Shown piece by piece: positions 22,888 through 51,356 of a stretch of DNA of 58,710 nt (position 1 is the first letter of the stretch; each line of letters begins with the position of its first letter). A program made the position numbers and the translations under genes. Under the pieces are notes generated by a model. That model worked only from the letters and a program-made list of their open reading frames with translations, was not told where the DNA came from and did no database searches. The stretch spans positions 7,517 to 66,226 of the forward strand of contig CAZUUQ010000004.1 of NCBI GenBank assembly GCA_964622625.1. Reading direction: 5' to 3'. Source of the stretch: an uncultured Phycisphaeraceae bacterium (GTDB lineage Bacteria > Planctomycetota > Phycisphaerae > Phycisphaerales > Phycisphaeraceae).

Positions 22888-22909
22888 GGAATATCAGCTC
22901 CTGCGATGG

Positions 22910-26723: not shown

Positions 26724-26764
26724 GAGATTTTGTTCCCTTTGCAGACACCTTGCTTAACGGTTGC

Positions 26765-27514: not shown

Positions 27515-27555
27515 GGTGAATCAGATTTCCGTGAGTGTGTTTGGATCAGGATCGG

Positions 27556-33623: not shown

Positions 33624-33804
33624 GTGCCGTTGTCTGCATCGTTCCGCGTGTCGCCCCGTCGCGGGCTGGACATTATGGAGTTTTGCTCGCGGAAAGCAAA
33701 CGTGCGCGCATGCCGAAACGCCCGCATTGCGGATGGATCAAAAGACTGTACCCCGCATACCAGCGCGCACAATCAACTTCGCGAGAGCGATACCGCGTGG
33801 CGGC

Positions 33805-34767: not shown

Positions 34768-35148
34768 ATGCCCACGGTTCTGCTGGTAGACGACGAAATC
34801 CACCTGACGACGATGGTCGCGTCCCGCCTTCAGCGGGCGGGGGCGACGGTGCTGACGGCCGATAACGGCCGCGAGGCGCTCGACCTCGTGCGGCAGCAGT
34901 CGGTGGACCTGATCATCACCGACTACCAGATGCCCGAGATGGACGGCTTCGCGCTCTGCCAGGCGCTGCACGACGATCCCGGGACGACTCACATTCCCGT
35001 CATCATGCTCACCGGCCGGGGCCACAAGCTGCGGCCTGAGGAAGTGGCCCGCACGAGCATCCGCCAACTGATGGAAAAACCTTTCGCGATGCGCGAGCTG
35101 CTGGCGGCGGCAGGTGAAATTGTCGAACTCAATGCCCAGGCGGCGTGA
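34768..35148 (+). CDS. Single-domain response regulator (CheY-like REC)
   Basis: It has VLLVDDE, the phospho-acceptor context LIITDYQMPEMDG, then IMLTG and KPF. It is 126 aa long. Confidence 0.85.
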   Translation: MPTVLLVDDEIHLTTMVASRLQRAGATVLTADNGREALDLVRQQSVDLIITDYQMPEMDGFALCQALHDDPGTTHIPVIMLTGRGHKLRPEEVARTSIRQLMEKPFAMRELLAAAGEIVELNAQAA

Positions 35149-35194
35149 CGCGCCGCCGGCGTCCACAAAGGCACCCGATACAGAGGAATCGCCG

Positions 35195-36808
35195 ATGGCC
35201 CGCGCTGTGAACGATGAAGCGTTCAACGCCCTGGCGCAGCGTTGCAGCACGCTGGGCCTGCACCTCTGGCCGACGGATGAAACAGGCCGGCCCGTGGGCC
35301 AGCCCCAGGGACCGGCCGCGGAGCACCCCATCATCAGCCATCCCGTGTTGACGCGACGCCTTTCGGCCGCCATCGAACAGTTCTACGGGCACGACGGTGC
35401 CGCGGCGCAGCAGCCGGTGCCGCTGGATGAGCACGTCTGGCTGCTGGCGGCGCCCGATGGCCGCCCACGCGGCCGCGGCGTGGCGGCGTGGGCGCTGGCG
35501 ATGCCGGCTGACGCACTCGAAGGCGCGTTTTTGCGCGGCCTGTGCGCGGAGACAGGATCCGATGTGTCGGTGCTGGAGACGCTTCGGCCGCATCTGCCCG
35601 GCGGCCCGGTGAATGCCGGCCACCTGGCCGCCGCGCTGCGCTGGGCCGCGGCCGACCTGACACACCAGAGCCGCCAGCACATCGCCATCGAGCAGTTCGG
35701 TGACAAGCTCAGCCGTTCTTACGAGCAGATCACGCTGCTCTACCGCTTCGCCCGTCTGATGAACGCCACCAACGACGCTCGACAGGGCATGCAGATGCTC
35801 TGCGATCAGTTTCGAGCCGTCATGGAAATGGGCTGGGTCGTCATCGCCTTCGTGCCCGATCCGGCCATTCCCGACCTGGACGACGCGATATTCCTGGCCG
35901 GCGACCTGCCGTGCGAGCGGTCGCGATTCGAGCAGCTTGTCCGCGTGTATCTTCGCGGCTCGCACACCAATGACTGGACGCGCGTGCTCAACCCGGAGAA
36001 GGACGAACTGGCCGGGGTTGCCCGACGTGAGATCGCGGCCGAGCCGATCACGCATGACGGACGCGTTGTCGGCGTCATGCTGGCGGCCAATGCGCCTGGA
36101 CCGCAAAGCGACGTCGACAGCGAACTGACGCAATTCCTGGACGCCGCGGCCGACTACCTGGGCGTGTTTCACGAGAACCTGGCGAGGTTCGAGGAGCAGC
36201 GGGTGATGTTCTTGGGGACGCTCCAGGCACTGACAGCCGCGATCGACGCCAAGGACCGCTACACCTGCGGCCACACGGAGCGCGTGGCGATGCTGTCGGC
36301 CCAGTTGGCCGAGGCGCTGGGCATGTCGGCCCAGGAGGTCGAGCAGGTGCGCATCGCGGGTTTGGTGCACGATGTGGGCAAGATCGGCGTGCCCGAGGCG
36401 GTGCTGTGCAAGCCCGGCCGACTGAGCGACGAGGAGTTCGAGCAGATCAAGCGGCATCCGACCATCGGCTACAACATTCTCAAGGACATCCCGCCGCTGG
36501 AGCCGATGCTGCCGGGCGTGCTCTATCACCACGAACGCTGGGACGGGCGTGGGTATCCGGAAGGCCTTGCGGGTGAGGACATTCCCCTGCTGGGCCGCAT
36601 CATCGCCTGTGCCGACACCTTCGACGCAATGCGCTCGACGCGTTCTTATCGGTCCGCCCGCACGTCGACGGAAACACTGGTCGAGATGAACCGCTGCGCC
36701 GGCAGCCAGTTCGACCCGCGGTTGATCCCCGTCTTCGTGAAGCTGGACTTCACCACCTACGACCGCATGGTGGAGCGGCACGAACAACGGGTCAGCTTCG
36801 CGGCCTGA
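35195..36808 (+). CDS. HD-GYP domain protein (putative c-di-GMP phosphodiesterase) with an N-terminal unknown region and a GAF-like domain
   Basis: The motifs HTERVA..GLVHDVGKIGVPE and HHERWDGRGYPEGL (HD and GYP motifs both intact) are present. The ATG at 35195 is preceded by agaggaa. Confidence 0.85.
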   Translation: MARAVNDEAFNALAQRCSTLGLHLWPTDETGRPVGQPQGPAAEHPIISHPVLTRRLSAAIEQFYGHDGAAAQQPVPLDEHVWLLAAPDGRPRGRGVAAWALAMPADALEGAFLRGLCAETGSDVSVLETLRPHLPGGPVNAGHLAAALRWAAADLTHQSRQHIAIEQFGDKLSRSYEQITLLYRFARLMNATNDARQGMQMLCDQFRAVMEMGWVVIAFVPDPAIPDLDDAIFLAGDLPCERSRFEQLVRVYLRGSHTNDWTRVLNPEKDELAGVARREIAAEPITHDGRVVGVMLAANAPGPQSDVDSELTQFLDAAADYLGVFHENLARFEEQRVMFLGTLQALTAAIDAKDRYTCGHTERVAMLSAQLAEALGMSAQEVEQVRIAGLVHDVGKIGVPEAVLCKPGRLSDEEFEQIKRHPTIGYNILKDIPPLEPMLPGVLYHHERWDGRGYPEGLAGEDIPLLGRIIACADTFDAMRSTRSYRSARTSTETLVEMNRCAGSQFDPRLIPVFVKLDFTTYDRMVERHEQRVSFAA

Positions 36809-36934
36809 ACAACCGGATTGGTTTACCCAGCTTCAACTCCCGGCCGATCTGGCCGATAGCTCTTCCATGAAGGCGCCGGGGAAGCTACGCGCGCTGGCCG
36901 CGCCGGGGCGGTGGGCGATGGGAGGCTTGCGACA

Positions 36935-38437
36935 ATGACCAGGTCGTCGCTGATGCAGCTTGTTCACCCGGGCGCGACCCCCGCCGGCCGTATCGGACTC
37001 GCGCTGGCGGGCTGGCTGGTGGTGGGCCTCGCCGCCGCGGGCGCCGGCGCTGCCGGTGCCTGGTGGTGGATGGGCCTGGAAGTGGCCGCACCGTCTGACA
37101 GCGGGTCGATGCTGAGCCTGCTCCTGGTCGGCTTGGGTGCGATCGGACCGGCCCTGGCGGTGTGGGCGATCACCGGGCGCATTGTCGCCGGGCGCATGAC
37201 GGGCCTGAGCGTGCTGCTTGAAGCGCTGCGCTCGGTCCAGCAGGGGCGCGACGCGGCTGAAGACCTGAAACTCGATCCCTCCTACGGACCGGAAGCGGAG
37301 TTGTGGAACCGCCTGATCGACGAGCGCGAGGCCGCGCGGCGGGCGCAGGTGCAGCAGCAGACGCAGCAGGCGCATCAGGATCGGCGGCGAGGCGGTGGCG
37401 GCCGGCTCGACGAACTGTGCGACAGCCTGGCCACCGGCCTGGTGCTGCTGGACGATCAGGGAAATGTGACCTACTGCAACGGCGCGGCCGCGGTGCTGCT
37501 GGGCACGCGGCGTGACGATCTGCTGGGCACGCCGGTGTCACAGCGGATGGATGATCCGCGCCTGCTGGAAGGTCTGCAGGGAGCGCTGGACAAGACGCTG
37601 CGCCGCCGCACGACCGTCGAAGTCGATCGAGGCCAGCAGGAGCGCGGCGGCGTGCTGCGCTTCACGGTGCGACCGGCCCGGGAAAGCGACGCCGCACGAG
37701 CCGTGATGATCATCGAGGACATCACGCAGCAGCGCGTGGCCGAGCGCGCGCGGTATGCGTTTGTCGCCCACGCGACGCACGAGCTGCGCACGCCGCTGAC
37801 CAACATCCGCCTGTATGTCGAGAGCCTGGTCGATGAGCCGGACGCCGCCCCGGCCGAGCGCGGCCAGCGGCTGAACGTCATCAATCAGGAAGTACGCCGC
37901 CTGGAGAACCTGGTGGGCGACATGCTCTCGGTGGCGGAAATTGAATCGGGCGCGATGCGGGCCGACCGCGACGACGTGCCCATGGCCGCGCTCTTCGAGA
38001 GTCTGCAGAACGACTACCGCCAGCAGGCGGCCGACAAGAGCATCGCGATGCACTTCGATCTGCCCCCGAAACTGCCCACGCTTCAGGGCGATCGCGCCAA
38101 GCTGGTGCAGGCCCTGCACAACCTGGTGGGCAACGCGCTCAAGTACACGCCGGAAGGCGGCGAGGTGCGCGTCAAGGCCGAGTGGGACAACGGCCAGCTT
38201 GTCATCGATGTGGCCGACTCGGGCATCGGCATCGGCGAGCAGGACATGGCGAACCTGTTCCAGAAGTTCTATCGCGCCCGCGACGAGCGGGTGAGCAAGA
38301 TCATCGGGTCGGGACTGGGCCTGGCCCTGTCGCGCGAGATCATCCGCCTGCACGGCGGGGAGATCACGGTGCAGTCGCAGTTGAACAAGGGCAGCACATT
38401 CACGGTGAATCTGCCGGCCCCGGCGCAGGCGGCTTGA
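36935..38437 (+). CDS. Sensor histidine kinase (two TM helices, coiled coil, PAS, HisKA, HATPase_c)
   Basis: It has the H-box FVAHATHELRTPLTNI, the N-box LVGNALKYTP and the G-boxes DSGIGI and GSGLGLALSREI. A PAS-like stretch GLVLLDDQGNVTYCNGAAAVLLG is also present. Confidence 0.85.
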   Translation: MTRSSLMQLVHPGATPAGRIGLALAGWLVVGLAAAGAGAAGAWWWMGLEVAAPSDSGSMLSLLLVGLGAIGPALAVWAITGRIVAGRMTGLSVLLEALRSVQQGRDAAEDLKLDPSYGPEAELWNRLIDEREAARRAQVQQQTQQAHQDRRRGGGGRLDELCDSLATGLVLLDDQGNVTYCNGAAAVLLGTRRDDLLGTPVSQRMDDPRLLEGLQGALDKTLRRRTTVEVDRGQQERGGVLRFTVRPARESDAARAVMIIEDITQQRVAERARYAFVAHATHELRTPLTNIRLYVESLVDEPDAAPAERGQRLNVINQEVRRLENLVGDMLSVAEIESGAMRADRDDVPMAALFESLQNDYRQQAADKSIAMHFDLPPKLPTLQGDRAKLVQALHNLVGNALKYTPEGGEVRVKAEWDNGQLVIDVADSGIGIGEQDMANLFQKFYRARDERVSKIIGSGLGLALSREIIRLHGGEITVQSQLNKGSTFTVNLPAPAQAA

Positions 38438-38480
38438 GGCGGTTCGAACGACATGCGCCTGCATTGACACGGTTGAAGCC

Positions 38481-38816
38481 ATGCATATTCACGAGCAGCA
38501 GCAGGGAGCGGTGGCGGTCCTGAAGCCCGACGGGCCGATCAGCGGTGACGACGGCAAGGTGCTGCGCGAGCGCGCCAGCCGCGCGGCCGAGCAGAACATG
38601 GGACGCATTGTGTTGGACATGTCGGCCGTGCCTTTCGTGGACAGCGCGGGGCTGGAGGCGCTGTACGACGTCGGCCAGTCGCAGGGCGAATCGGGACGCG
38701 TGCTGTGCCTGGTGGCGGCCAACGCGACGCTGCGCGAGGTTTTCGAGCTGACGGGCATGGCGGCGCAGTACGAGTATTTCGAGGACGTGCAGGGCGCCAT
38801 CAGGAGCTTCCTGTGA
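38481..38816 (+). CDS. STAS-domain protein (anti-sigma-factor antagonist, SpoIIAA/RsbV-like)
   Basis: It is 111 aa long. The stretch VLDMSAVPFVDSAGLEAL holds the conserved DS(A/S)G phosphorylatable-Ser context. Confidence 0.8.
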   Translation: MHIHEQQQGAVAVLKPDGPISGDDGKVLRERASRAAEQNMGRIVLDMSAVPFVDSAGLEALYDVGQSQGESGRVLCLVAANATLREVFELTGMAAQYEYFEDVQGAIRSFL

Positions 38817-40582
38817 GCGAAAATGCCGGCAAATTGCGGATCGGCGACCTGCTGCTGGAAAAGCAGCTTGTCAATGAGCAGCAACTGCGCCAGGCTCTGG
38901 CTGAACAGGCCGGCAGCGGCAAGATGCTCGGCGAAGTGTTCGTCGAGCTGGGCCTCGTGCAGCCGGGCGTGCTGGTCAAGACGCTGGGCCAGCGCCTGGG
39001 CGTGCCGGCCGTGGTGCTGCGCCACGGGCTGATCGATCCGGCCCTGCTGCCGCTGATCGGCGCCGAGGAGGCCGAGAAGCTCGGCGTCATTCCGATGTTC
39101 AAGGTCCACGGCGAACTGACCGTGGCCATGGCCGAGCCGCAGTCGCTGCCGACGATCGACCGCCTCAAGGCCCTGTCGAACTGCCGCATCCGCCCGGTGC
39201 TGGCGCTCAAGAGCAACATCATCGAGTACGTGCGCAAGTACGCCGGCGGCGACGTCGATGTCGACGCGTTCCTCACCTCGCTGGCCGAGTCGGATGTCGA
39301 GGTCATAGAGCGGGAAGAGGTCGAGGAGATCTCGGCCACCAACCTCGACCGGATGGTGGAGGGCAGCCCGATCATCAACCTGGTGAACGTGGCGATGCTC
39401 TCGGCCGTGCGCGATGGGGCCAGCGACATCCACATCGAGCCGGATCATAAAGGCACGCGCATCCGCTACCGCATCGACGGCATGCTGCGCGACCTGATGA
39501 AGCCGCCGGCCGGCATGCACGCGGCCATCACCGCGCGCATGAAGGTCATCGGCAAGATGGACATCGCCGAGAAGCGCCTGCCGCAGGAGGGCCGCGTGCG
39601 CATCGTCGCCGAGGGTCGGCAGATCGACCTGCGCGTCTCGAGCATGCCGACGCTGCTGGGCGAGAAGATCGTGGTGCGCGTGCTGGACAAAGGCAATCTG
39701 CGCGTACGCATGGAAGACCTGGGAATGCGAGCCGAGGCGCTGACGTCGTTGCGGCACATGCTCGACAAGCCGCACGGGCTGGTGCTGGTCACCGGCCCGA
39801 CCGGCAGCGGCAAAACCACCACGCTCTACTCGGCCCTCGAACTGCTGCGCGGCACGGAGCGCAACATCGTCACCGTGGAAGATCCCGTGGAGTACCAGCT
39901 TGATCTGGTCAATCAGATCCAGGTGCACCCGGCGATCGGCATGACCTTCGCCCGCGCCCTTCGCAGCATCCTGCGCCAGGATCCGGACGTGATCATGGTC
40001 GGCGAGATCCGCGACGACGAAACGGCCAAGGTGGCGGTGCAGGCGGCCCTGACCGGGCACCTGGTGCTGGCGACGCTGCACACCAACGACGCGCCCAGTG
40101 CGGTGGCCCGCCTGCTGGACATGGGCGTCGAGTCGTACCTGCTGTCGGGCGCGCTCAACGGCGTGTGTGCCCAGCGGCTGGCGCGGACCATCTGTCCGTC
40201 GTGCGCCACCAAGTATTACCCCTCGGAGCAGGTGCTGCGCGATGCGGGCCTGAGTGACCGCGTCGGCCAGACGTTTCGCAAGGGCGACGGCTGCGCCAAC
40301 TGCCACAACAGCGGCTTCCAGGGCCGCTGCGGCATCTACGAAGTGATGGAAGTCACGCCTGATCTGCGGCCCATGATCCACGGGGCGGTGGCGGCACACG
40401 AGCTTCGTCGCGCCCACATACAGCATGGCGGTCTGACACTGCGGCAGGAGGGCGTGCTGCTGGCGCTGGAGGGGCGCACGAGCCTGGAGGAAGTGCTCCG
40501 CGTCACGCAGTCTGAGGATGAGCAGTCCGCCACGGTCGCCCCCAAGCCGGCCGCCAAGGAGGAGGCGAAACAGGCCGCATGA
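38813..40582 (+). CDS. Type II secretion / type IV pilus assembly ATPase (GspE/PilB family) with an MshEN-like N-terminal domain
   Basis: It has Walker A GPTGSGKTTT, the Asp box and Walker B VIMVGEIRD, a His box ATLHTND and a tetra-Cys CPSC..CANC. The GTG start overlaps the STAS stop codon (GTGA). Confidence 0.92.
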   Translation: MSENAGKLRIGDLLLEKQLVNEQQLRQALAEQAGSGKMLGEVFVELGLVQPGVLVKTLGQRLGVPAVVLRHGLIDPALLPLIGAEEAEKLGVIPMFKVHGELTVAMAEPQSLPTIDRLKALSNCRIRPVLALKSNIIEYVRKYAGGDVDVDAFLTSLAESDVEVIEREEVEEISATNLDRMVEGSPIINLVNVAMLSAVRDGASDIHIEPDHKGTRIRYRIDGMLRDLMKPPAGMHAAITARMKVIGKMDIAEKRLPQEGRVRIVAEGRQIDLRVSSMPTLLGEKIVVRVLDKGNLRVRMEDLGMRAEALTSLRHMLDKPHGLVLVTGPTGSGKTTTLYSALELLRGTERNIVTVEDPVEYQLDLVNQIQVHPAIGMTFARALRSILRQDPDVIMVGEIRDDETAKVAVQAALTGHLVLATLHTNDAPSAVARLLDMGVESYLLSGALNGVCAQRLARTICPSCATKYYPSEQVLRDAGLSDRVGQTFRKGDGCANCHNSGFQGRCGIYEVMEVTPDLRPMIHGAVAAHELRRAHIQHGGLTLRQEGVLLALEGRTSLEEVLRVTQSEDEQSATVAPKPAAKEEAKQAA

Positions 40583-41790
40583 AGCTCGCCTACCAGGCTT
40601 TCGACCGCCAGGGCCGCTCGATCAGCGACGTGATCGACGCGGCCAGTCTCGCCGAAGCGACCGAATCGCTTCGCCGCGAAGGTCTGTTCGTGGCCCAGCT
40701 CGCCCCCGCGAGTGCGGCCGCGACGGCGACGACCATGCCGAGCAAGGGCGGCATGCGCGATCTGGCGATCTTCACCAAGCAGCTTTATGTGCTGGCCTCG
40801 ACCGGTTCACCCGTGCCCGAAGCCCTGGCCGCTTTGCAGCGCCAGATGCGCAACCCCGCGTGGAAAGCCGTGCTGGCCGACATCATCGAGCGCGTCGAGG
40901 AGGGCGAGTCGCTCTCCGAGGCCATGGCCCAGCACCCCGGCTTCTTCGATGACATCTACCGCAGCCTGATCGCGGCTGGCGAAGCCAGCGGACAGCTTGT
41001 GTCGATGCTGCAACGGCTGTCGCTGCTGGTCAACAAACGCTGGCGCACGCAGAGCACGCTGCGCGGGGCGATGATCTATCCGATCGCCTTGACGGGCATC
41101 GCCGTTACGGTGCTGAATCTGGTCATGCTGTTCGTCGTGCCGCGGTTCATGGAACTGTTCGAGACGTTGGACGTCCCGCTGCCGGCCTCGACGCGGCTGC
41201 TGCTGGCCGCCAGCGAATTGTGCATGGGTTACTGGTGGGTCGGCGTGCTGGTGCTGGGCGGGGGCGGTTTCGCGGCGTGGCGGTATCTGCACACGCCGGC
41301 CGGTCAGCAATGGCGCGATGCGACCATCCTCCGCCTGCCGGTGTTCGGCAAGCTGGCCAAGGGATTTGCGGTGGCCCGCATCGCCCGCCTGCTGGGCAGC
41401 CTCGTGGAGAGCAACGTCACGCTGCTGGAGGCGCTGCAACTGACGCAGCGTGCGGCCGGCAACGTGCACTATGCCGCGCTGCTGGCCGACGCCGAACAGG
41501 CCGTCACCCAGGGCGAGCCGGTCAGCCGCACCTTCAACGACAACCCGCTGATTCCCGAGTCGTTTTACGAAGCACTGCGCAACGGCGAGCGTTCCGGCAA
41601 GATGGGTCTGCTGCTGGTCAACATCGCGGAGATGCTCGACGACGAGAACGAGACGACGCTGAAGGCGGCGCTGAGTCTGATCGAGCCGGCGATCCTCGTG
41701 GGCCTGGGCCTGCTGGTGGGCGCGGTCGCGGTGAGCATGTTCCTGCCGCTGTTCGATCTGACGGCGATGGCGTCGGGAGGAGGCGGCTGA
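40579..41790 (+). CDS. Type II secretion / type IV pilus platform protein (GspF/PilC family)
   Basis: It is 403 aa long with a duplicated T2SSF architecture and three TM helices. It has an ATGA overlap with the ATPase gene. Confidence 0.9.
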   Translation: MKLAYQAFDRQGRSISDVIDAASLAEATESLRREGLFVAQLAPASAAATATTMPSKGGMRDLAIFTKQLYVLASTGSPVPEALAALQRQMRNPAWKAVLADIIERVEEGESLSEAMAQHPGFFDDIYRSLIAAGEASGQLVSMLQRLSLLVNKRWRTQSTLRGAMIYPIALTGIAVTVLNLVMLFVVPRFMELFETLDVPLPASTRLLLAASELCMGYWWVGVLVLGGGGFAAWRYLHTPAGQQWRDATILRLPVFGKLAKGFAVARIARLLGSLVESNVTLLEALQLTQRAAGNVHYAALLADAEQAVTQGEPVSRTFNDNPLIPESFYEALRNGERSGKMGLLLVNIAEMLDDENETTLKAALSLIEPAILVGLGLLVGAVAVSMFLPLFDLTAMASGGGG

Positions 41791-44136: not shown

Positions 44137-44222
44137 ATGAAGCAGGGGGGTGAGGAACCAAGGGTTCGGGGACCGATGGACCATAGGACCAAGGGACAGT
44201 GGGAGAAGTGACGGAGTTGGGC

Positions 44223-44795
44223 ATGACACGTGAGCGGAAAATCCTGGCGACCATCCTGACGGTTGGCGCAGGGGCGCTGCTGGTGGACCGCGCACTGCAG
44301 AGCGGTGAGCCGGCGGCGGCCGATGCCGCGGTGCTTGTCGCGCAGTCGGGTCCGGCGATGGATGCCGACACGATGACGCCGCCCGCAGCGGCGACGGTTG
44401 CCGCTTCGCCGGACCAAGGCCCCTCGGTGGCCCAGCGGCTGGCGCGGACGGCCGAACGGTTGGCGATCGATCCGGGCCAGGTGCAGGAAGCATTCAATCC
44501 GCCGGCGTCGTGGCTGCAGCAGACCGCCGAGGCCGCGAATGGGGCCGAGCAGCCGCTGTCGGCCCAGGCGCGCCAGTTCGCCCAGCGCCACCGGCTTGAG
44601 GCCGTGGTGCTCAGCGGTGACGCCAGCTTCGTGGTGATTAACGGCATGACGCTGCGGCGGGGCCAGTCGCTGGACGGTCTGTTGCTGGTGGATATTCAGT
44701 CGCGTTCGGTGGTGTTCGAGTCGCCGCAGATGCGGGTGACGCTGCGCCTGGCGGACGCCGGCAGCGAAGGCGGTGCGGGTGGCGAAGGCCGATAA
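44223..44795 (+). CDS. Hypothetical single-TM protein, possibly PilP/GspC-like
   Basis: It has an N-terminal TM helix, an Ala/Pro-rich linker and a C-terminal stretch VVLSGDASFVVINGMTLRRGQSLDGLLLVDIQSRSVVF that resembles PilP/GspC-type beta domains. The ATG at 44223 has a GGAG SD. Confidence 0.35.
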   Translation: MTRERKILATILTVGAGALLVDRALQSGEPAAADAAVLVAQSGPAMDADTMTPPAAATVAASPDQGPSVAQRLARTAERLAIDPGQVQEAFNPPASWLQQTAEAANGAEQPLSAQARQFAQRHRLEAVVLSGDASFVVINGMTLRRGQSLDGLLLVDIQSRSVVFESPQMRVTLRLADAGSEGGAGGEGR

Positions 44796-44972
44796 CCCGC
44801 GGCCGATGTGCTGCGGTGTCAGACCAGGCCGCAGTCAATGGCACACTCTTGCCAATCCGCCGCAGAGGGGACGATCCGGCGTCAAGTGCCGGGTGCGGCG
44901 CGCCGACGTGAAGAGTTGGAGCGCCGCAATTCGCGGCGATTTCGGGCCATCGGCCCGCCAAGGAGCACTGAC

Positions 44973-45449
44973 ATGCACGGGTACGCACGCAATCGTCACG
45001 CCGGGTTCAGCCTGATCGAGCTGGTCATCGTGGTGGTGATCATCGGGATCATCGGCGCCATCGCGATCCCGCGCATCAGCCGCGGCTCGGCGGGCGCGGC
45101 CGACTCGGCCACCATGGGCGACCTGGCGGTGCTGCGCAACGCCATCGACCTCTACGCCACCGAGCACGACGGCACCTATCCGACGCTGGCGGCGATCGAG
45201 GACCAGTTGACGCAGTACACCGATTCGGCCGGCAACGTCTCGGCCACGCGGGATGCGACGCACATCTATGGTCCATACGTGCGGCGGATCCCCCCGCTGA
45301 AGGTCGGCGTCGAAAAGGGCAGCACAGCCTTCACCGACACGGCAGGCACCGCCGACTCCGGCTGGGTCTACGACGAGGACACCGGCAACCTGGTGCCCAA
45401 CACCACCACCGAAGCCGACGCCACGGGCCGTCTCTACTCAGACTATTGA
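44973..45449 (+). CDS. Prepilin-type N-terminal methylation-domain protein (major pilin/pseudopilin candidate)
   Basis: The leader MHGYARNRHAG|FSLIELVIVVVIIGIIGAIAIP shows a G/F cleavage site with Glu at +5. A strong SD aaggag is present. Confidence 0.8.
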   Translation: MHGYARNRHAGFSLIELVIVVVIIGIIGAIAIPRISRGSAGAADSATMGDLAVLRNAIDLYATEHDGTYPTLAAIEDQLTQYTDSAGNVSATRDATHIYGPYVRRIPPLKVGVEKGSTAFTDTAGTADSGWVYDEDTGNLVPNTTTEADATGRLYSDY

Positions 45450-45514
45450 TCGCACCCCCAAACTGACATACGACCGCGCGTCGGCCGTGAGGGCGGCGGG
45501 GTGAAAGGAGAACG

Positions 45515-46027
45515 ATGATGGCCCGGGCCGCAGCGTTCTCTCTGCTTGAACTGGTCATGGTGATCGTGATCCTTGGCGTGGTGGCCGCCCTGGCGGTGCC
45601 ACGCCTGTCACGTGCCGGCAGGAACGCGTCCGTTGCCGCGCTGACCGCCGACCGGGCCGTGCTCCAGAGTGCCATCGATCGCTACGAGGCCGAGCACAAC
45701 AGCACGTTTCCCGCGGCAGCGACGATCGTCGATCAGTTGCTGAAGTTCACGGACATCGAGGGCAACGTCGCGGCCAGCGGCGACGCGGTGCATCTGTTCG
45801 GTCCGTACCTGCGGCGCATTCCCCCCCTGGCGCACGGGCCCAACGCCGGGGCGACGACGATCGCCACGGAACCGGCCGCGGTCGTGGGCTGGATCTATGT
45901 GCCATCCAGCGGCCGCATTTATCCCAACCTGTTCGAGAACGGGCAGATTGACGAGGAACTCAAGCCTCTGCTGGGCCTGTCGCCGCTGCAGTTGAAGCAG
46001 TTCGAGCAGGACGGGAGGCTGCCGTGA
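45515..46027 (+). CDS. Prepilin-type protein, paralog of 44973..45449
   Basis: The N-terminus is MMARAAA|FSLLELVMVIVILGVVAALAVP, and the core L(R/Q)(N/S)AID(L/R)Y(A/E)(T/A)EH is shared. Position -1 is Ala, not Gly. The SD is aaaggag. Confidence 0.7.
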   Translation: MMARAAAFSLLELVMVIVILGVVAALAVPRLSRAGRNASVAALTADRAVLQSAIDRYEAEHNSTFPAAATIVDQLLKFTDIEGNVAASGDAVHLFGPYLRRIPPLAHGPNAGATTIATEPAAVVGWIYVPSSGRIYPNLFENGQIDEELKPLLGLSPLQLKQFEQDGRLP

Positions 46028-46500
46028 CCCTGCCTGCGCGCTGTTCGTGGGCCGGGGGGTTCACGCTGGTGGAGCTGGTGCTCGTGGCGGCCATCGTGGC
46101 GATCATGTCGGCGATGGCCATTCCACGTTACGCCCGGGCCATGGAGCGATACCGTGTGCAGGCGGCCACGCAGCGCGTGATCAACGACCTGGCCCACGCG
46201 GCTGAGGTCGCACGCACCCGCAGCGCCCCGGCGGTGATCCGCTTTGATCCCGACGACGACTCGTACACCATCGAAGGGCTGGACGATCCGGACCGCGACG
46301 AGGCGGAGTACGTCGTGCGGCTCGACCAGTCGCCCTACGGTGTGCGGTTGTACCACGCGAACTTCAACGATGAGTCGTGGGTGCGATTCGACGGCTACGG
46401 CCAGCCGCAGACCGGCGGCTTGGTCATCATCGGCGGGCCGCTGAGCGGCATGCGGGTGATAGCGCTGGACGCGCAGACCGGAAAGGCGGTGGCGCAATGA
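46024..46500 (+). CDS. GspH/FimT-like minor pseudopilin
   Basis: The N-terminus ..WAGG|FTLVELVLVAAIVAIMSAMAIP is prepilin-type, and it is 158 aa long. Its GTG start overlaps the previous stop codon (GTGA). Confidence 0.65.
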   Translation: MTLPARCSWAGGFTLVELVLVAAIVAIMSAMAIPRYARAMERYRVQAATQRVINDLAHAAEVARTRSAPAVIRFDPDDDSYTIEGLDDPDRDEAEYVVRLDQSPYGVRLYHANFNDESWVRFDGYGQPQTGGLVIIGGPLSGMRVIALDAQTGKAVAQ

Positions 46501-48158
46501 GTCGCTGCGGCCGCAATGCGAGTCCCCGGCATGCACGTGCCGCCACCGGCGGCATGACGCTGGTGGAAGTCGTCGTCGCCCTGGCGATCAGCAGTCTGCT
46601 GATGGTGGCGGTGGGGTCGGCGGTGGTGATGGCGTCGCACGCCTTGCCGAGCCGCTCGAGTCCGACGCAGGCGGGCATTCATGGCGGACGGGCGCTGCAG
46701 CACATGGCGGCCGAGTTGGAAACCGCCCTTTACATGATCGAACGCGACGCCCGCGCTGTGAGCTTTACGGTGCCGGACCGTGATAACGACGGTCGGCCGG
46801 AGGTGGTGCGCTACACCTGGTCGGGCACGGCCGGGGATCCACTGGAGCGTCAATACAACGGTGGGCCGGCGGTCGCGGTGCTCGACGAAGTGGGGCTGCT
46901 GCATCTGACTTACGACATGCAGAGTGTCAGCGAGTCGATCCGCGGTCCGGGCGTCGAGGATGCGCAGGAACAGCTTCTGGCCGCGGTCGGCGACTGGGGC
47001 GGATTCAATGAACTGTCGGTGACCAGCGCCCGGTGGGCGGGACAGTATTTTCTGCCGGACCGCGCGCGGGTGGGCATGAGCTGGCGGCCGACGCGGGTGC
47101 TGGTGCGGGCGAGGCAGGCCTCGAGCCCAGGGGCGGTGTGGCTGGAACTGCACCGCGCCGACGCGAACATGCGGCCGTCGGGCACGGTGCTGGCCTCGAC
47201 GTCGCTGACCTCGGCCAGTCTGGTGTCGTGGTTCCATGTCTGGCGGGAACTGCCGATTACGGGGGTGCAGGGCCTGGCGCCGGATCAGGCGGTATGTTTC
47301 GTGGTCAGGCATCAGCAGGGCACCACCGGCGCGTACCTGGCTGGTGACGACAGCTCCGGTTCGGGTCTGCTGCGCACCACCGACAGCGGCGCGACCTGGC
47401 AGTATCACGCCACCCAGTCGCTGCACACGGAGCTGTACGGCCACGTCACAATGCCCGGGCCGGCGAAATCGGTGGCGCGGCACTATCTGGCGGGCGTGGG
47501 TGTGACGCTGGTGACGGGAGCCCAGGGCAAGCGGCTGTCCACCACGATGGCGGCGCTGAACCACCCGGAGCTGCTGCGAGGCCTGTGGGAGCTGGATTTC
47601 GAACGCAATCCCACAACGGTGGACCTCAATGGCGACAGCCTGGGTGACTGGGTGGTCGAGAACGGCAGCGCCTTTGCCATGTCATCGCTGTCGGACGGCG
47701 TCTGGCGCCCGACGCAGACACTCATGAGCCAGCCGCAGTCGGACTTCACCGGGCTGACCACCATCGAGCTGCGCTGGCGGGCCGTGAGCGTCGGCGGGCA
47801 GGGAGCGCTGATGGCGATCAACGCGGATCGCAGCGAAGGCCAGGCTGTGCAGCTTCTCAGTTCGCTGACGCGGCAAGCGGACGGCACGCAACTGCTGCGC
47901 ATCCATCGAATGACCAGCGGCGGAGAGATGCCGTTGCTGGCCCTGATCGGCGGACTTCCTGGCGAGATGATAGACCTGCGGTTGATGATCGATCCGGCGA
48001 CGCGCACCTTCAACCTGAACGTCAATGACACGGACCGCGGCAGCTTCGCTTATCAGCGTGACGCGGTCAACGGTCGGCAAGGGCGGGTGTGGCTGATGGC
48101 CTTGGGCGCGACGGCGGAGTTTGACCATGTGCGCATCCGCGAGGGAGGTGCGCCATGA
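46497..48158 (+). CDS. Large GspJ/PilW-like minor pseudopilin (553 aa)
   Basis: The N-terminus ..ATGG|MTLVEVVVALAISSLLMVAVG is prepilin-type, followed by a long C-terminal extension with no motif I recognise. It has an ATGA overlap with the previous gene. Confidence 0.6.
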   Translation: MSRCGRNASPRHARAATGGMTLVEVVVALAISSLLMVAVGSAVVMASHALPSRSSPTQAGIHGGRALQHMAAELETALYMIERDARAVSFTVPDRDNDGRPEVVRYTWSGTAGDPLERQYNGGPAVAVLDEVGLLHLTYDMQSVSESIRGPGVEDAQEQLLAAVGDWGGFNELSVTSARWAGQYFLPDRARVGMSWRPTRVLVRARQASSPGAVWLELHRADANMRPSGTVLASTSLTSASLVSWFHVWRELPITGVQGLAPDQAVCFVVRHQQGTTGAYLAGDDSSGSGLLRTTDSGATWQYHATQSLHTELYGHVTMPGPAKSVARHYLAGVGVTLVTGAQGKRLSTTMAALNHPELLRGLWELDFERNPTTVDLNGDSLGDWVVENGSAFAMSSLSDGVWRPTQTLMSQPQSDFTGLTTIELRWRAVSVGGQGALMAINADRSEGQAVQLLSSLTRQADGTQLLRIHRMTSGGEMPLLALIGGLPGEMIDLRLMIDPATRTFNLNVNDTDRGSFAYQRDAVNGRQGRVWLMALGATAEFDHVRIREGGAP

Positions 48159-48961
48159 GCGGATGCCGGCGGCTCTTGAGAGCGAGCGAATCGGGTTTCG
48201 CGCTGGTCGAGGCGGTGATTGCGTCGCTCCTGGTGGGGCTGCTGTTCGTGACGGCGATGAACGTCGTGGCCGCGTCCCGCACCAGCCAGGCGGTGACGCT
48301 TGATCGCGTCATCGGCCAGGAACTGGCGACCGATCTGCTCAATGAGATTCTTCGCCGCGCGTACATCGAGCCGTTCGATACTCCCCGTTTCGGCCGTGAG
48401 ACAGGCGAGTCGGCCGACCTGCGGGCGAACTACAACGACGTGGACGACTACCACGGTTGGTCGGCCACGCCGCCGCAGCAGGCCAACGGCACGGCGATCA
48501 CGGAGTACGAAGGCTGGCGTCGCAGTGTGCAGGTGGCGTGGGTCGACCCCGCCGCTCCGGACGTGGCGGTGGGCGAGGACCGCGGCGCCAAACGGATCAC
48601 GGTCACGGTCGAGCGTCACGGCAGGGTCGTCGCGCGGGCCGCGGCGATCCGCACGGCCGGGTGGAGCAATCCCATGCCCGAACCGGAGCGCGTCAGCGAC
48701 AACCGGGCGCCTGTGGCCGTGGCGCAAGGTGCTCCGTTGGTGGTCAGCCGCAACAGTCTGGTGAGTTTCAGCGCCGCTTCTTCCAGCGATCCCGACAGCG
48801 ACGCCCTGACGTATTACTGGAGTTTCGGCGATGGCAGCGGCGTCGGCGGTGTGAGCGCCGGCAAGCGCTACAGCCAGACGGGTTTCTACACCGTCACGCT
48901 TACCGTCTCCGACGGCCAGGCGATCGACACCGACCAGCTTGTGGTGGAGGTGCGGTGGTGA
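48155..48961 (+). CDS. GspI/PilV-like minor pseudopilin with a C-terminal PKD domain
   Basis: The N-terminus is ..SESG|FALVEAVIASLLVGLL. The PKD signature SFSAASSSDPDSDALTYYWSFGDGS...GFYTVTLTVSDG is present. It has an ATGA overlap with the previous gene. Confidence 0.65.
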   Translation: MSGCRRLLRASESGFALVEAVIASLLVGLLFVTAMNVVAASRTSQAVTLDRVIGQELATDLLNEILRRAYIEPFDTPRFGRETGESADLRANYNDVDDYHGWSATPPQQANGTAITEYEGWRRSVQVAWVDPAAPDVAVGEDRGAKRITVTVERHGRVVARAAAIRTAGWSNPMPEPERVSDNRAPVAVAQGAPLVVSRNSLVSFSAASSSDPDSDALTYYWSFGDGSGVGGVSAGKRYSQTGFYTVTLTVSDGQAIDTDQLVVEVRW

Positions 48962-50685
48962 GGGACGACCGGCGACGAATGCGGCAGCGTCAGCATGGCA
49001 GCATCTACCTGATGGTGCTGGGCAGTTCGCTGATCGTGACGGTCATCGGCCTGTCGGCCCTGGCGGCGGTGCGCGTCGAGCGCATGTCATCGCAGGTGAA
49101 CCGCGACCTCGCGCAGGCCCGGCTCCTGGCGCGGTCGGCCATCGACCTTGGCATGCTCCAGATCCGCGACGACCCGCGCTGGCGGCAGCGCGGCCCGGGC
49201 GTGTGGATCAGCGACCTGACGCTCGGCGCCGGCCTGCTGTCGCTCGAAGCCATTGATCCGCAGGCCGGCAACTTTCAGCAGCCCGACGGACCGGCCGTGC
49301 TGGTGGGCACCGGCCGCGTGGGCGCTGCCCGGTACGTGGTGCGGACGGAACTGACCACTGCCCGTGGCCTGCCCTGCCTCGAAAATGCCATGCACTCCGG
49401 CCGTGAGATCATCTTTGACGCGACGACCGTCGCCAACAACCAGATGGTGAGCGCCAACCGCGACATCGAGGCCAAAGGCGGTTCCACCGTGTACGGCGAC
49501 GTGGAGTCGGCCCACAATGTCCTGGGCGGCACGTACATGGGCCAGACCGCCTCAAGCGCGCCCGAACGCACCATCCCGGATGTCGCGACCGTACTGGCCT
49601 ACTACCTGGCCAACGGCACGGCCATTCAATACGCCGATCTGCCGACCACGGGACCGAATCTTCTGACAAATACCGGTATGGAGGACGGCATCGCGCCGTG
49701 GGTCGATCGCGGCTTCTGCAAACTTGATGTCTCAGCCGACCAGCCGCACGGCGGAAACGCCAGCCTGCGCGTCTCCGATCGAGCCGCGCCCTGGGCCGGA
49801 CCGTTGCAGGACATCCGCGATCAGGTCGTCAACGACGCCCAGTACACAGCCGAGGCCTGGGTACGGCTGGCCTACGTCCCCGAACAGATGAAGATCACCG
49901 TCTGGGTCCGCGACGACGATGGCGACCACTGGCATTCCGGCAATCTTCAGGCGGTGGGTACGGCCTGGACGAAGATCACCGCCCAGTTCCCGATCAACTG
50001 GAAAGGCGATTTGCAGCACTGCATGATCTATGTCGAGACAGGCGCGTCGAACCAGCGGTTCTACGTGGACGACATGTCGCTGCGCCGCATCGAACCCGGC
50101 GGGCCGGGCATCCGACGTGTGGTGCTCAGCCCGGCCCACAATCCCTTCGGCTCCGGCCAGACCAATGCCCAGGGCATCTATGTCATCAACTGCAACGCCA
50201 ACCGCATCGAGATCGCCGATGCCCGCATCGTCGGCACGCTGGTGCTGCTGAATCTGGGCAGTGGCTCACGAATTGGCGGGGCCGTCGCCTGGGAGCCGGC
50301 CCGGCCGAACTTCCCAGCCCTGCTGGTCAGCGGAAGTATGACCATCGCCCACGGATCGGCCGGCCTGAGCGAGGCGGACTTCGGCATCAACTTCAACCCC
50401 GCCGGCGCGGCCTTTCCCTTTCCCGAAGGCGAGAGCGACGGCGACAGCGACGACGGCTACCCATCGATCGTCCGCGGCCTGGTCTACGTCAGCGGCAACA
50501 TAGAACTGGCGAATCATCCCACGTTCGACGGCGTGGTGCTGGCGGGTCTGGACGTGATCGCCCGCGGACCGGGGCTGGACCTGCGCTACCGCCCGACGTT
50601 CCTCAACGATCCGCCGCCGGGCTTCGACCAGATGGTGCGCACCGTCGAACTTGTGGCCGGCTCGTGGCGGCGGATCGTGGACTGA
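48958..50685 (+). CDS. GspK/PilX-like protein with an internal CBM4_9-like carbohydrate-binding-type module
   Basis: It has an N-terminal hydrophobic anchor GSIYLMVLGSSLIVTVIG without a G/F cleavage site. The module NLLTNTGMEDGIAPW...ASLRVSDR...FYVDDMSLRRIE follows the NGGFE..W / ..DD.S. pattern. The GTG start overlaps the previous stop codon (GTGA), with an alternative ATG at 48979. Confidence 0.55.
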   Translation: MRDDRRRMRQRQHGSIYLMVLGSSLIVTVIGLSALAAVRVERMSSQVNRDLAQARLLARSAIDLGMLQIRDDPRWRQRGPGVWISDLTLGAGLLSLEAIDPQAGNFQQPDGPAVLVGTGRVGAARYVVRTELTTARGLPCLENAMHSGREIIFDATTVANNQMVSANRDIEAKGGSTVYGDVESAHNVLGGTYMGQTASSAPERTIPDVATVLAYYLANGTAIQYADLPTTGPNLLTNTGMEDGIAPWVDRGFCKLDVSADQPHGGNASLRVSDRAAPWAGPLQDIRDQVVNDAQYTAEAWVRLAYVPEQMKITVWVRDDDGDHWHSGNLQAVGTAWTKITAQFPINWKGDLQHCMIYVETGASNQRFYVDDMSLRRIEPGGPGIRRVVLSPAHNPFGSGQTNAQGIYVINCNANRIEIADARIVGTLVLLNLGSGSRIGGAVAWEPARPNFPALLVSGSMTIAHGSAGLSEADFGINFNPAGAAFPFPEGESDGDSDDGYPSIVRGLVYVSGNIELANHPTFDGVVLAGLDVIARGPGLDLRYRPTFLNDPPPGFDQMVRTVELVAGSWRRIVD

Positions 50686-50747
50686 CGCCGCGCCGCTGGA
50701 GCTGCCATTGGGCCGTTTGCGGGCCTTGAGCCGATAATGATGCGAGC

Positions 50748-51356
50748 ATGAACCATGCGACCGCGCCTGTTCCGCGCCCCGTGCAACGGCTGCTGGCTGA
50801 GCTGCCTGGCTGGATCTTTCTGCTGGGCGGGGCGGTGCTGGTCGCGGCCGTGGTACTGGGCCGCGGCCGCGTAGAGAACGCCCCGCTGATCTGGCAGCGC
50901 GATCTGCTCGAAGCCCAGGCCCGCCAACTCGATGCCCGACGTGACGCCTACCAGACGCTGCGAACAGCGCTCGATGAAGGTGACCCGGTACTCCTGGAAC
51001 GCCTGGCTTTCGAGTACCTGCGCCTCCAGCCCCGCGATCGCCTGCTCCTGGCCACCCCCGGCAGCACCACGCCTGGCCACGCGAGCCGATGGCCCAAGGC
51101 GATCGCCCCGGCCGCGGCCGCACACGCAGCCGACTTCACGCCGGCCATCGACCGCACCGTCGAGGCATCGCTCAACCGACCCCTCTCGCGCGAGGGCCTG
51201 GACGTGCCGCCCTTCGAGCCGGACCGCTCGCTGCTGGCCCGCCTGGCCCGGGGATGGTCCGCTCCCGGCCTTGTCGCTGTCGGCGGCATTCTCATCGTCG
51301 CGGGTCTCCTCTGGTCGCCGTCGTCCAATGGCCGCGGCATCCGGTCCGTGCAGTGA
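50748..51356 (+). CDS. Hypothetical membrane protein (N- and C-terminal TM helices with a coiled coil between)
   Basis: Its coding bias is good and the TM helices WIFLLGGAVLVAAVVL and LVAVGGILIVAGLLW are visible. It is the last co-directional gene of the pilus-like cluster. Confidence 0.4.
   Translation: MNHATAPVPRPVQRLLAELPGWIFLLGGAVLVAAVVLGRGRVENAPLIWQRDLLEAQARQLDARRDAYQTLRTALDEGDPVLLERLAFEYLRLQPRDRLLLATPGSTTPGHASRWPKAIAPAAAAHAADFTPAIDRTVEASLNRPLSREGLDVPPFEPDRSLLARLARGWSAPGLVAVGGILIVAGLLWSPSSNGRGIRSVQ

Follow-up and report, generated by a model that had tools for sequence, protein, structure and literature searches.

The DNA analyzed here is a 58.7-kb stretch from an uncultured Phycisphaeraceae bacterium (contig CAZUUQ010000004.1), considered over its whole length and herein referred to as the window (G+C content ~66%). 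Between 34.7 and 51.4 kb of the window, every long open reading frame (ORF) with coding-type codon bias, judged by the G+C content at third codon positions (GC3), lies on the plus strand, and 17 such ORFs were found. Sixteen co-directional genes at 34768-50685 are considered as one system, in which four signalling genes (for a REC receiver, an HD-GYP phosphodiesterase, a PAS histidine kinase, and a STAS protein) are followed by genes for a type IV filament machine and its pilins, while the 17th ORF, at 50748-51356, is set apart from them. With somewhat better than even confidence, we read this system as a Planctomycetota-specific locus for a surface pilus with a glycan-binding tip, the assembly of which would be gated post-translationally by cyclic di-GMP (c-di-GMP). 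In a start-codon analysis, overlaps of 1-4 nt (ATGA or GTGA) were found to join the genes for STAS, the assembly ATPase, PilC, PilM, PilN, and PilO in this order, as well as the genes for pilin B and the H-, J-, I-, and K-like minor pilins. The remaining spacers are 43-177 nt long, including 126 nt between the HD-GYP and kinase genes; a terminator scan found no terminator-like sites inside them, and a promoter scan was also uninformative. The starts of PilC, PilM, and PilN and the STAS/ATPase overlap were also obtained in independent gene calls, made on short Logan contigs that carry this sequence. A scan of the entire window with Rfam, which would include a c-di-GMP riboswitch upstream of the operon, gave zero matches. 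Thus, of the seventeen genes with short or negative spacers described in a first-pass annotation of this DNA, sixteen are retained and the last, which is not conserved, is left out.

For comparison with relatives, loci of GTDB genomes found by the platform protein were used together with 13 orthologous metagenome loci, in which the ATPase is 69-89% identical to that of the window; individual loci are cited by their L numbers. The closest GTDB platform proteins, ~50% identical, come from metagenome-assembled genomes (MAGs) of Phycisphaeraceae, Tepidisphaerales, Isosphaeraceae, and Planctomycetaceae.

The first gene of the system (34768-35148, plus strand, as are all the genes described below) encodes a stand-alone CheY-like receiver of 126 amino acids (aa; Pfam Response_reg, 5.8e-25), in the sequence of which the acidic pocket, the phospho-acceptor Asp (ITDYQMP), and the conserved Thr and Lys are present. 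In relatives, this REC gene always adjoins the HD-GYP gene, on its upstream side. The HD-GYP c-di-GMP phosphodiesterase (35195-36808, 537 aa; HD_5, 1.2e-40) has an alternative start at 35132, the 537-aa form being the choice of the source's gene caller (P0102). Its sequence contains the signature residues HDVGK ... HHERWDGRGYPEGL, that is, the HD motif and the HHExxDGxGYP motif, the latter seen as HHERWDGRGYP. At least 120 full-length homologues with 43-83% identity were found, and those with an organism name belong to Planctomycetota. The N-terminal region of ~345 aa is conserved and possibly contains a GAF domain in its last third, for which the matches are marginal (Pfam E-value of 0.013, PDB profile E-value of 0.2); the first-pass call of a GAF-like HD-GYP enzyme is therefore confirmed for HD-GYP and left as a possibility for GAF.

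The membrane-anchored PAS histidine kinase (36935-38437, 500 aa) matches PAS, HisKA, and HATPase_c, with HATPase_c_2 matched at a sub-threshold level only. It has two N-terminal hydrophobic segments separated by a loop of ~10 residues, and its H-box reads HELRTPL. The last signalling gene (38481-38816) encodes a single-domain STAS protein of 111 aa (Pfam STAS, 2.7e-16), the nearest solved relatives of which are RsfB, TM1442, MlaB, and SpoIIAA. In an alignment of 19 orthologues, the Ser of the DSxGLE motif is invariant (19/19) and the C-terminal AVRSFL is conserved. This C-terminal end, S/AVRSFL (window 38781-38813), is nearly invariant across both of the planctomycete locus types described below and lies at the overlap with the ATPase start; its constancy would be due either to a role of this motif in docking or to the overlapping ribosome-binding site and start codon, which would constrain the sequence. 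With these matches, all four signalling assignments of the first-pass annotation are confirmed by profile hidden Markov models (HMMs).

The PilB/GspE-family assembly ATPase (38813-40582, 589 aa; T2SSE, 3.8e-136) begins with a GTG codon that overlaps the STAS stop codon by 4 nt (GTGA), as confirmed by the independent gene call. It contains an N-terminal MshEN domain (2e-15) and a tetra-Cys motif. The scores for the NCBIfam equivalogs PilB (579 bits, cutoff 676) and GspE (564 bits) are both below cutoff, and the best full-length matches among solved structures are the PilB proteins of Geobacter and Myxococcus. The earlier suggestion of a putative c-di-GMP-binding N-terminus on an ATPase encoded near a c-di-GMP-degrading enzyme was borne out at the level of profiles: besides the MshEN match, the protein scores 53.1 bits on the NCBIfam model 'c-di-GMP_motif' (curated cutoff of 38). 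Two 24-residue motifs separated by a 5-residue spacer were found, namely R9-IGDLLLEKQLVNEQQLRQALAE-Q32, AGSGK, and M38-LGEVFVELGLVQPGVLVKTLGQ-R61, in the same register as in Vibrio cholerae MshE. Each copy has one deviation from the relaxed motif at a conserved position, Gly18 to Gln and Arg38 to Met, respectively. Tandem c-di-GMP motifs of 24 residues, likewise set 5 residues apart, are also described for the V. cholerae MSHA system, Myxococcus xanthus PilB, Clostridium perfringens PilB2, and Thermus thermophilus PilF (PMC5013675, PMC11656802). MshEN-type control of PilB and MshE by c-di-GMP is known, and c-di-GMP is expected to promote assembly (PMC5013675, PMC11656802). The system analyzed here differs from these MshEN ATPases in encoding a dedicated kinase, receiver, HD-GYP enzyme, and STAS protein, and in the deviations at Gly18 and Arg38, so that its c-di-GMP binding is a prediction.

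Evidence that signalling and machine genes belong together comes from gene order. In a tblastn search with all window proteins, the core of the system was found to be syntenic in ~25 independent related planctomycete loci, more than chance would give, the conserved order being kinase, STAS, ATPase, PilC, PilM, PilN, PilO, HR-domain protein, pilin(s), H, J, I, and K. The STAS gene is located directly upstream of the ATPase gene in 16 of the 17 loci scored, and the single miss, L009, arises artificially from a frameshift in the ATPase gene, so that the adjacency holds in 17/17 informative loci. In L009 (8217-12466; OY969783.1, the chromosome of a Tepidisphaeraceae MAG), the ATPase, PilC, and PilM genes are split across frames and the downstream pilin block is missing, so that the copy is either decaying or affected by frameshift errors of long reads. 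The kinase gene lies upstream of the STAS gene in 14/14 orthologous loci with enough flank, and the 4-nt STAS/ATPase overlap is retained at ATPase identities as low as 50% (L013, L095, and L097). Because of the 4-nt overlaps, the core synteny in ~25 loci, and the constant positions of STAS and kinase, the signalling and machine genes are regarded, on the grounds of sequence comparison, as one functional unit that is real and conserved. The synteny across genomes and the domain matches on which the first-pass annotation had made its proposal depend were thus both found.

The REC and HD-GYP genes are linked to this core in three different topologies: upstream on the same strand (the window and L024), convergent downstream (L002, L005, and L096), and divergent upstream (L095 and L097). 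The linkage survives all of these arrangements and is therefore good evidence of functional coupling. Additionally, all three HD-GYP homologues looked up on megabase contigs (3/3) adjoin the cluster, one of them in the isolate Phycisphaeraceae bacterium D3-23. In this isolate (L095 12667-14727), a protein with HDOD, GGDEF, and REC domains is encoded one gene past the HD-GYP gene, with a metallophosphoesterase-like gene between the two; it is a candidate for the cognate diguanylate cyclase of the module.

A second type of planctomycete pilus locus was found in L028-L048, L059, L066, and L093 (e.g., L029 317-14163), with an ATPase 41-46% identical to that of the window. The gene order in this type is PilN, PilO, (PilP), secretin, TPR, PAS kinase, REC, GAF-HD-GYP, STAS, PilB, PilT, and PilC, and the source records give the names Planctomycetia, Sedimentisphaerales, or Phycisphaerae for its proteins. 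The STAS gene adjoins PilB in 17/35 of these loci, and the REC and HD-GYP genes are present in 10/19. Among PilB loci below 41% identity, neither STAS (0/23) nor REC with HD-GYP (0/13) was found. Because the four-gene signalling module occurs in this second type and is absent from the more distant PilB loci, it is a planctomycete-wide companion of PilB-type motors and not specific to the window. Hence the idea that the module is unique to the machine of the window had to be given up, since the same genes also precede PilB in a secretin- and PilT-containing locus. The window type could also be a rearranged orthologue of this secretin-containing locus, which is of the type IVa pilus (T4aP) type. 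Besides the divergence of the ATPases noted above, PilC identity between the two types is ~30%, and the apparent occurrence, by MAG names, of both types in both Phycisphaerae and Planctomycetia favours old paralogy.

Downstream of the ATPase gene, the platform protein PilC/GspF (40579-41790, 403 aa; T2SSF, 3.7e-51) has GspF as its best NCBIfam match (336 bits, cutoff 424). It is followed by genes for the actin-like cytoplasmic protein PilM (41790-42863, 357 aa), PilN (42860-43513, 217 aa), and a PilO-like protein (43510-44136, 208 aa). As single sequences, these three proteins give weak matches, and PilM and PilO were called by profiles built from orthologues. The PilM family profile (A5) matches the solved PilM structures 5eox, 3jc8, and 2ych over the full length, with E-values of 1e-25 to 5e-27. 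PilN scores above the Pfam PilN cutoff (27.2 bits, cutoff 22.8) and has a VNLLP motif at the N-terminus, followed by a transmembrane segment. For the PilO-like protein, Pfam PilO and T2SSM_b are matched weakly and NCBIfam GspM reaches 40.6 bits (cutoff 60), and its family profile (A9) matches PilO of M. xanthus with an E-value of 5.7e-16 and that of Pseudomonas aeruginosa with 0.012. No structures of GspL or GspM were found among the matches of the PilM and PilO family profiles. PilM and PilN are encoded by separate genes, unlike the fused GspL. All the machine components named by the first-pass annotation were thus recovered, the ATPase and platform by HMMs and the alignment proteins by the family profiles and the features of PilN.

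The next gene (44223-44795) encodes a bitopic inner-membrane protein of 190 aa, herein referred to as the HR-domain protein (PilP/GspC/GspB type). A search for its homologues gave 5 sequences, and the AlphaFold2 (AF2) model is therefore confident for the C-terminal domain alone (residues 114-176, predicted local distance difference test, pLDDT, of 80-88). The top four Foldseek matches of this domain are GspB (4wfw), the HR domain of GspC (3oss_C, in complex with GspD), PilP (2lc4), and the HR domain of PulC (6hcg_e). Their E-values of 0.02-0.4 are weak because the domain is short; the target-normalised TM-scores are 0.43-0.68, and the root-mean-square deviation is 1.9-2.8 Å for the GspB, GspC, and PulC matches and 7.7 Å for PilP. 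The fold came from structure prediction, a PDB sequence-profile search with this protein having returned nothing; matches to Pfam T2SSB and NCBIfam GspC are sub-threshold, and no PDZ domain was found. The C-terminus also matches an ORF upstream of the secretin gene in L093, which is the PilP position of pilMNOPQ operons. The former PilP/GspC-like candidate is thus given a fold of the expected kind. HR domains dock onto the N0 domains of secretins in both T4aP and type II secretion systems (T2SSs).

No secretin was found within the 58.7-kb window. The cluster of L012 and that of L017, two divergent relatives, are each immediately flanked by a secretin-TPR gene pair. The L017 secretin (610 aa; STN, Secretin_N, and Secretin domains) is encoded divergently from the kinase gene, and that of L012 is convergent, after the K-like gene. 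The L012 secretin ORF (13978-15591 of CP070685.1) is 301 aa long, corresponds to the C-terminal half, and is adjoined by a truncated gene for a GatA-like amidase, so that a rearranged or misassembled junction is suspected here. Because an HR fold is encoded in the cluster and the secretin-TPR pair stands beside the cluster in these relatives, it is likelier that the machine uses a secretin encoded elsewhere; the term "secretin-less" used in the first-pass annotation fits the locus, but probably not the machine.

Six pilin genes complete the system, and the N_methyl model was matched on five proteins of the cluster in the Pfam and NCBIfam HMM searches. The major pilin, pilin A (44973-45449, 158 aa; N_methyl, 7e-8), has the leader ...RHAG/FSLIELV and a Cys-free, GspG-like globular part. 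Its family profile (A8) matches full-length PulG (5wda) with an E-value of 7.5e-14, as well as the soluble domains of GspG/EpsG, and its score on NCBIfam GspG is 39.8 bits (cutoff 88.9). A T4a-type disulfide-bonded C-terminal D-region is lacking: the pilins are Cys-free, and the globular domain matches GspG and not T4a pilins. Pilin B (45515-46027, 170 aa; N_methyl, 3.5e-4) is a paralogue of pilin A with Ala at position -1. A second copy of the pilin B type was found only in the closest relative, L024, and second pilin genes are also present in L012 and L096.

The minor pilins include a GspH/FimU-like protein (46024-46500, 158 aa) with matches to N_methyl and, at threshold, to Pfam GspH (21.5 bits, cutoff 21), while NCBIfam GspH is below cutoff (1.6e-10). 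The large J-like protein (46497-48158, 553 aa; N_methyl) has the signal peptide GG/MTLVEV, and the I/PilV-like protein (48155-48961, 268 aa) reads SESG/FALVEA at the corresponding place. Class III signal peptides, in which Gly occupies position -1 and Glu position +5, are common to the H-, J-, and I-like proteins. The I-like protein carries a PKD_4 domain at the C-terminus (3.3e-18) and matches PilV weakly (1.7e-4); the domain is absent from most relatives, in which the protein is ~178 aa long, and is present in L013. In relatives, short (~350 aa) and long (~550 aa) forms of the J-like protein alternate. The tandem pilins and the H-like protein of the first-pass annotation are hence supported by N_methyl and GspH matches, and the I and J labels rest mainly on gene position, besides N_methyl and the weak PilV match; the K label adds to its position the ComZ-like fold described below.

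The C-terminal ~184 aa of the J-like protein (window 47604-48155) match 427 representative clusters at E-values of 1e-3 or below. This domain is found at the C-terminus of hundreds of pilin-like proteins of ~550 aa (269 representative clusters at E-values of 1e-10 or below), as well as in a few much larger proteins. No Pfam match was found for the domain or its homologues, and no PDB sequence-profile match for the domain, so that they form, by sequence, an unannotated domain family; a ConA/LamG-like jelly roll, guessed at from the sequence pattern, is not claimed for it.

The largest minor pilin is the K/PilX/ComZ-like protein (48958-50685, 575 aa), which contains a carbohydrate-binding module (CBM; CBM_4_9, 8.8e-20). 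Its N-terminal hydrophobic helix lacks Glu5, as is the case for GspK and PilX also. PDB sequence-profile searches with the J-like and K-like proteins returned nothing, and the K-like protein was resolved by structure prediction. The AF2 model, built from a 46-sequence alignment (mean pLDDT of 90.7), comprises a 58-residue N-terminal helix (residues 15-72, pLDDT ~80-90), a beta-head, a beta-solenoid, and an inserted beta-sandwich. For the insert, Foldseek matches are CBM22, CBM16, and CBM4, with E-values down to 1.7e-11 and target-normalised TM-scores up to 0.85 (CBM22), and the whole protein matches the Thermus competence tip pilin ComZ (6qvi; E-value of 5e-7, TM-score of 0.27-0.30). The CBM is present in ~40% of the 96 K-like homologues listed, and the pair of I-like PKD and K-like CBM recurs in the distant lineage L013. 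Both modules had been recognised on these two minor subunits before, and the domain matches agree.

The system shares with the T4aP of M. xanthus, P. aeruginosa, and T. thermophilus (PilBCMNOPQ with FimU-PilVWX) an MshEN-containing ATPase of PilB architecture, a PilC platform, separate PilM, PilN (with an NLLP-type N-terminus), and PilO, of which PilM and PilO match solved T4aP proteins, a PilP-like HR-domain protein, and four minor pilins, one of them large and ComZ/PilX-like. It differs from T4aP in the Cys-free GspG-like major pilin, in the absence of PilQ, PilT, and PilD from the locus, in the arrangement of B-C-M-N-O-P-pilins as a single operon, in the CBM- and PKD-bearing minor pilins, and in the translational coupling of STAS to the ATPase. 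Features shared with T2SS (GspC-M) are the GspG-like pilin, the GspF-like platform, the H-type and three further minor pilins, the HR-domain protein resembling GspC/GspB, and an operon without a retraction ATPase. In contrast to T2SS, PilM and PilN are unfused (GspL in T2SS), PilO is not GspM by profile, GspD is not in the locus, MshEN stands in place of the GspL-binding N1E domain, and adhesive modules are found on the tip pilins. The mixture of T2SS and T4P (type IV pilus) features pointed out earlier is therefore real: the machine looks like a hybrid, with T4aP-like PilM, PilO, and ATPase, a GspG-like major pilin, and a PilC closest to GspF.

The regulatory part can be compared with two further groups of systems. 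One is RpfC/RpfG of Xanthomonas, a pathway with effects on pilus functions in which a histidine kinase and a receiver work together with a c-di-GMP phosphodiesterase of the HD-GYP type. The system of the window differs from it in that the receiver and HD-GYP enzyme are separate, adjacent genes, the HD-GYP protein having its own N-terminal region of ~345 aa and not a REC domain, and in that the kinase is a PAS kinase and not a hybrid sensor of the diffusible signal factor (DSF). STAS partner switches (SpoIIAA/RsbV, P. aeruginosa HsbA, and Vibrio fischeri SypA) and MlaB of MlaFEDB likewise involve single-domain STAS proteins, and the phosphorylatable Ser is kept in that of the window. MlaB also shows that a STAS protein can be the accessory subunit of an ATPase. 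Unlike the partner switches, the cluster contains no RsbW-type kinase, PP2C phosphatase, or sigma factor, and the partner of STAS would be the PilB-type ATPase.

For the tip, Streptococcus sanguinis offers a precedent: a tip complex of minor pilins with Ig-like and lectin modules was demonstrated experimentally (PMC9934059), and its PilC (Ig-like and lectin) and PilB (vWA) combine a pilin with grafted binding modules as the minor pilins analyzed here do (PMC9934059, PMC8179133). The lectin-like tip, in which the first-pass annotation did not recognise a described adhesin, thus has a precedent. T. thermophilus ComZ has the same pilin-plus-solenoid architecture as the K-like protein. Compared with these tip pilins, the system of the window has CAZy-type modules (CBM4/9/22-like and PKD), belongs to a diderm environmental bacterium, and carries its CBM as an internal, lineage-variable insertion.

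The pilus reading, which we somewhat favour, suggests the following mechanism. The PAS kinase would sense a cytoplasmic or membrane cue and phosphorylate the stand-alone receiver. The receiver, in turn, may control the neighbouring HD-GYP enzyme, the pair being a split RpfG-type enzyme. The MshEN domain of the ATPase would read local c-di-GMP, which would favour extension, as it does for MshE and PilB. The STAS protein, with its phosphorylatable Ser and translational coupling, probably binds the ATPase or the kinase and would be a second, phospho-dependent switch, acting as a direct, phospho-switchable cofactor of motor or kinase. The four minor pilins would prime the fibre and remain at its tip, where the CBM and PKD modules may bind a polysaccharide of the beta-glucan or xylan type. 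For passage across the outer membrane, the fibre would use a secretin of the PilQ type, the gene of which would lie elsewhere and which the HR-domain protein would contact. The chain from kinase through receiver, HD-GYP enzyme, c-di-GMP, and MshEN to the ATPase is derived from gene adjacency and known family behaviour. Its elements are known ones, namely MshEN control (PMC5013675, PMC11656802), an HD-GYP enzyme split from its receiver, and a PAS kinase, so that the regulatory logic, which the first-pass annotation could not recognise, is a familiar one in its parts. As for context, the region 9836-18295 of the window contains two GH94 genes (cellobiose/cellodextrin/chitobiose phosphorylase-type) together with genes for an apiosidase-like glycosidase and a transporter of the major facilitator superfamily (MFS). 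It is a region of beta-glucan-type catabolism and lies ~17 kb upstream of the CBM-tipped pilus genes.

Several observations weigh against the pilus reading. Neither PilT nor PilD is encoded in the window, which also lacks a secretin; the scanned ORFs of the window include a single one of the T2SSE family, and no PilT-type ATPase was seen in the examined flanks of orthologous loci. The GspG-like pilin domain and the GspF-closest PilC fit a short periplasmic endopilus such as that of T2SS. No diguanylate cyclase is encoded in the locus, and no RsbW/SpoIIAB-type Ser kinase or PP2C phosphatase for STAS was found in the cluster or its conserved flanks. The REC and HD-GYP genes are within reach in only 5 of the 12 orthologous loci whose flanks extend over 5 kb or more, and both the phosphotransfer from kinase to receiver and the control of HD-GYP by the receiver are proposed from adjacency. 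The G18Q and R38M deviations weaken the prediction of c-di-GMP binding by the MshEN domain of the window. Glycan binding by the CBM4/9/22-type module is predicted from its fold, and since the presence of the CBM and PKD modules varies between lineages, it would not be shared by all members.

The main rival, which we consider unlikely though worth weighing, is a planctomycete T2SS, in which a GspG-like periplasmic endopilus would push folded exoproteins, such as carbohydrate-active enzymes (CAZymes), through a secretin under c-di-GMP gating. The match of the major pilin profile to PulG/GspG over the globular domain agrees with it, as do the best NCBIfam matches of the platform (GspF), the PilO-like protein (GspM), and the HR-domain protein (GspC), the 564 bits of the ATPase on GspE, the four minor pilins, and a locus without PilT. 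MshE-type ATPases associated with T2SS are moreover reported as c-di-GMP binders (PMC5013675). However, every T2SS equivalog score is under its cutoff, and the alignment proteins speak for a pilus: PilM is separate and matches solved PilM over its full length and not GspL, PilN has the N-terminus of a PilM-binding type, and the PilO profile finds PilO and not GspM. The ATPase has the full PilB architecture including MshEN, neither GspD nor a PDZ-containing GspC is encoded in the locus, and a ComZ-like CBM tip pilin together with a PKD pilin suits an exposed tip and is hard to rationalise on an endopilus.

Less probable again is a retractile harvesting pilus, a CBM-tipped fibre that would bind soluble polysaccharide and, by way of the secretin, reel it into the periplasm, which is enlarged in planctomycetes, in analogy to ComZ-tipped DNA uptake. 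The resemblance of the CBM-bearing K-like protein to the tip pilin of Thermus DNA uptake would suit such a function, and so would the secretin conduit implied by the HR-domain protein and the beta-glucan catabolic genes of the window. Gold-labelled dextran was observed on pili-like fibres extending from crateriform structures, with some particles seemingly internalised, and no genes were assigned to these fibres (Boedeker et al., 2017, PMC5394234). Those fibres are, however, 12 nm thick, which exceeds typical T4P, and were seen in Planctomycetia species not shown to carry the cluster. Furthermore, no retraction ATPase is encoded in the locus, the CBM is absent from ~60% of the 96 K-like homologues listed, and polymer uptake through a secretin has no direct precedent save DNA. 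We hold it for slightly less probable still that the cluster encodes the polysaccharide-binding planctomycete fibres themselves, as a retractile CBM-tipped pilus that draws glycans through the secretin and is governed, on top of c-di-GMP sensing, by a previously unknown STAS-PilB partner switch.

A competence pilus for DNA uptake, with CBM and PKD as incidental decorations, is improbable. The ComZ match of the K-like protein by Foldseek (E-value of 5e-7) and weak matches of the pilins to Com-type NCBIfam models point that way, but the TM-score with ComZ (0.27-0.30) is low and stems from a generic architecture of pilin plus solenoid, the inserted module has a carbohydrate-binding and not a DNA-binding fold, and no ComEA, ComEC, or DprA genes were found in the window. 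Finally, that signalling and machine genes are separate units merely side by side, for which the 126-nt gap between the HD-GYP and kinase genes and the absence of REC and HD-GYP from the examined flanks in 7/12 orthologous loci could be adduced, is very improbable and appears largely refuted by synteny, given the constant STAS-ATPase adjacency (17/17) with its conserved 4-nt overlap, the kinase position (14/14), the three topologies of the REC and HD-GYP linkage together with the 3/3 megabase-contig homologues, and the same four genes adjoining a paralogous PilB.

The ORF that follows the system (50748-51356) encodes a hypothetical protein of 202 aa with hydrophobic segments at both ends. No Pfam or NCBIfam match was found for it, nor any tblastn match in the first ten related loci or in the larger related set (E-value of 1e-5 or below), and in L012 and L013 other, unrelated genes follow the K-like gene. 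This membrane protein, which the first-pass annotation had included, was dropped as a component because it has no homologue in the related loci compared, and it is probably not part of the system.

On the other side, a gap of ~1.1 kb (33624-34767) separates the REC gene from a divergent operon. This gap contains a single long ORF (33839-34672, minus strand), the GC3 of which is not of the coding type and for which Pfam and NCBIfam gave no match; neither an Rfam match nor a sigma-70-like promoter match was found in the gap. The divergent genes (19141-33623, minus strand) form a respiratory cluster for an alternative complex III (ACIII; multihaem cytochrome, FeS subunit, NrfD-like protein, and ActD), SCO1, and then a caa3-type oxidase, consisting of COX1, COX2 with fused cytochrome c, COX3, and COX4. 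At the beginning of the window (1-4240, plus strand), three tandem flagellin paralogues were found, the first of which is truncated by the window edge; at the DNA level, they share 74-91% identity in the helical regions of both termini and diverge in the central regions.

Taken by its parts, the system consists of elements of known kinds, and the combination of a CBM/PKD-tipped fibre with motor control by kinase, receiver, HD-GYP, and STAS is undescribed. On the regulatory side, it is the STAS-ATPase coupling and the four-part combination that look undescribed, the other elements being known. A 2024 review of PilB cofactors mentions none of STAS, HD-GYP, and anti-sigma proteins, and a full-text literature search returned nothing relevant on a PilB-linked signalling module of this kind. 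A 2025 review of Planctomycetota does not mention the terms pilus, secretion system, or c-di-GMP.

Planctomycetes are major degraders of polysaccharides, and the genes of their surface fibres are essentially uncharacterised. The locus analyzed here provides candidates for a fibre with a CAZy-type CBM tip pilin and for a phylum-wide kinase/receiver/HD-GYP/STAS module linked to PilB-type motors. The presence of a T4aP alignment complex next to a GspG-like pilin informs the question of how T2SS and T4aP diverged. The invariant coupling of STAS to the ATPase makes the STAS protein a candidate for a new class of PilB cofactors and, if this is true, would extend partner switching to the motors of type IV filaments.

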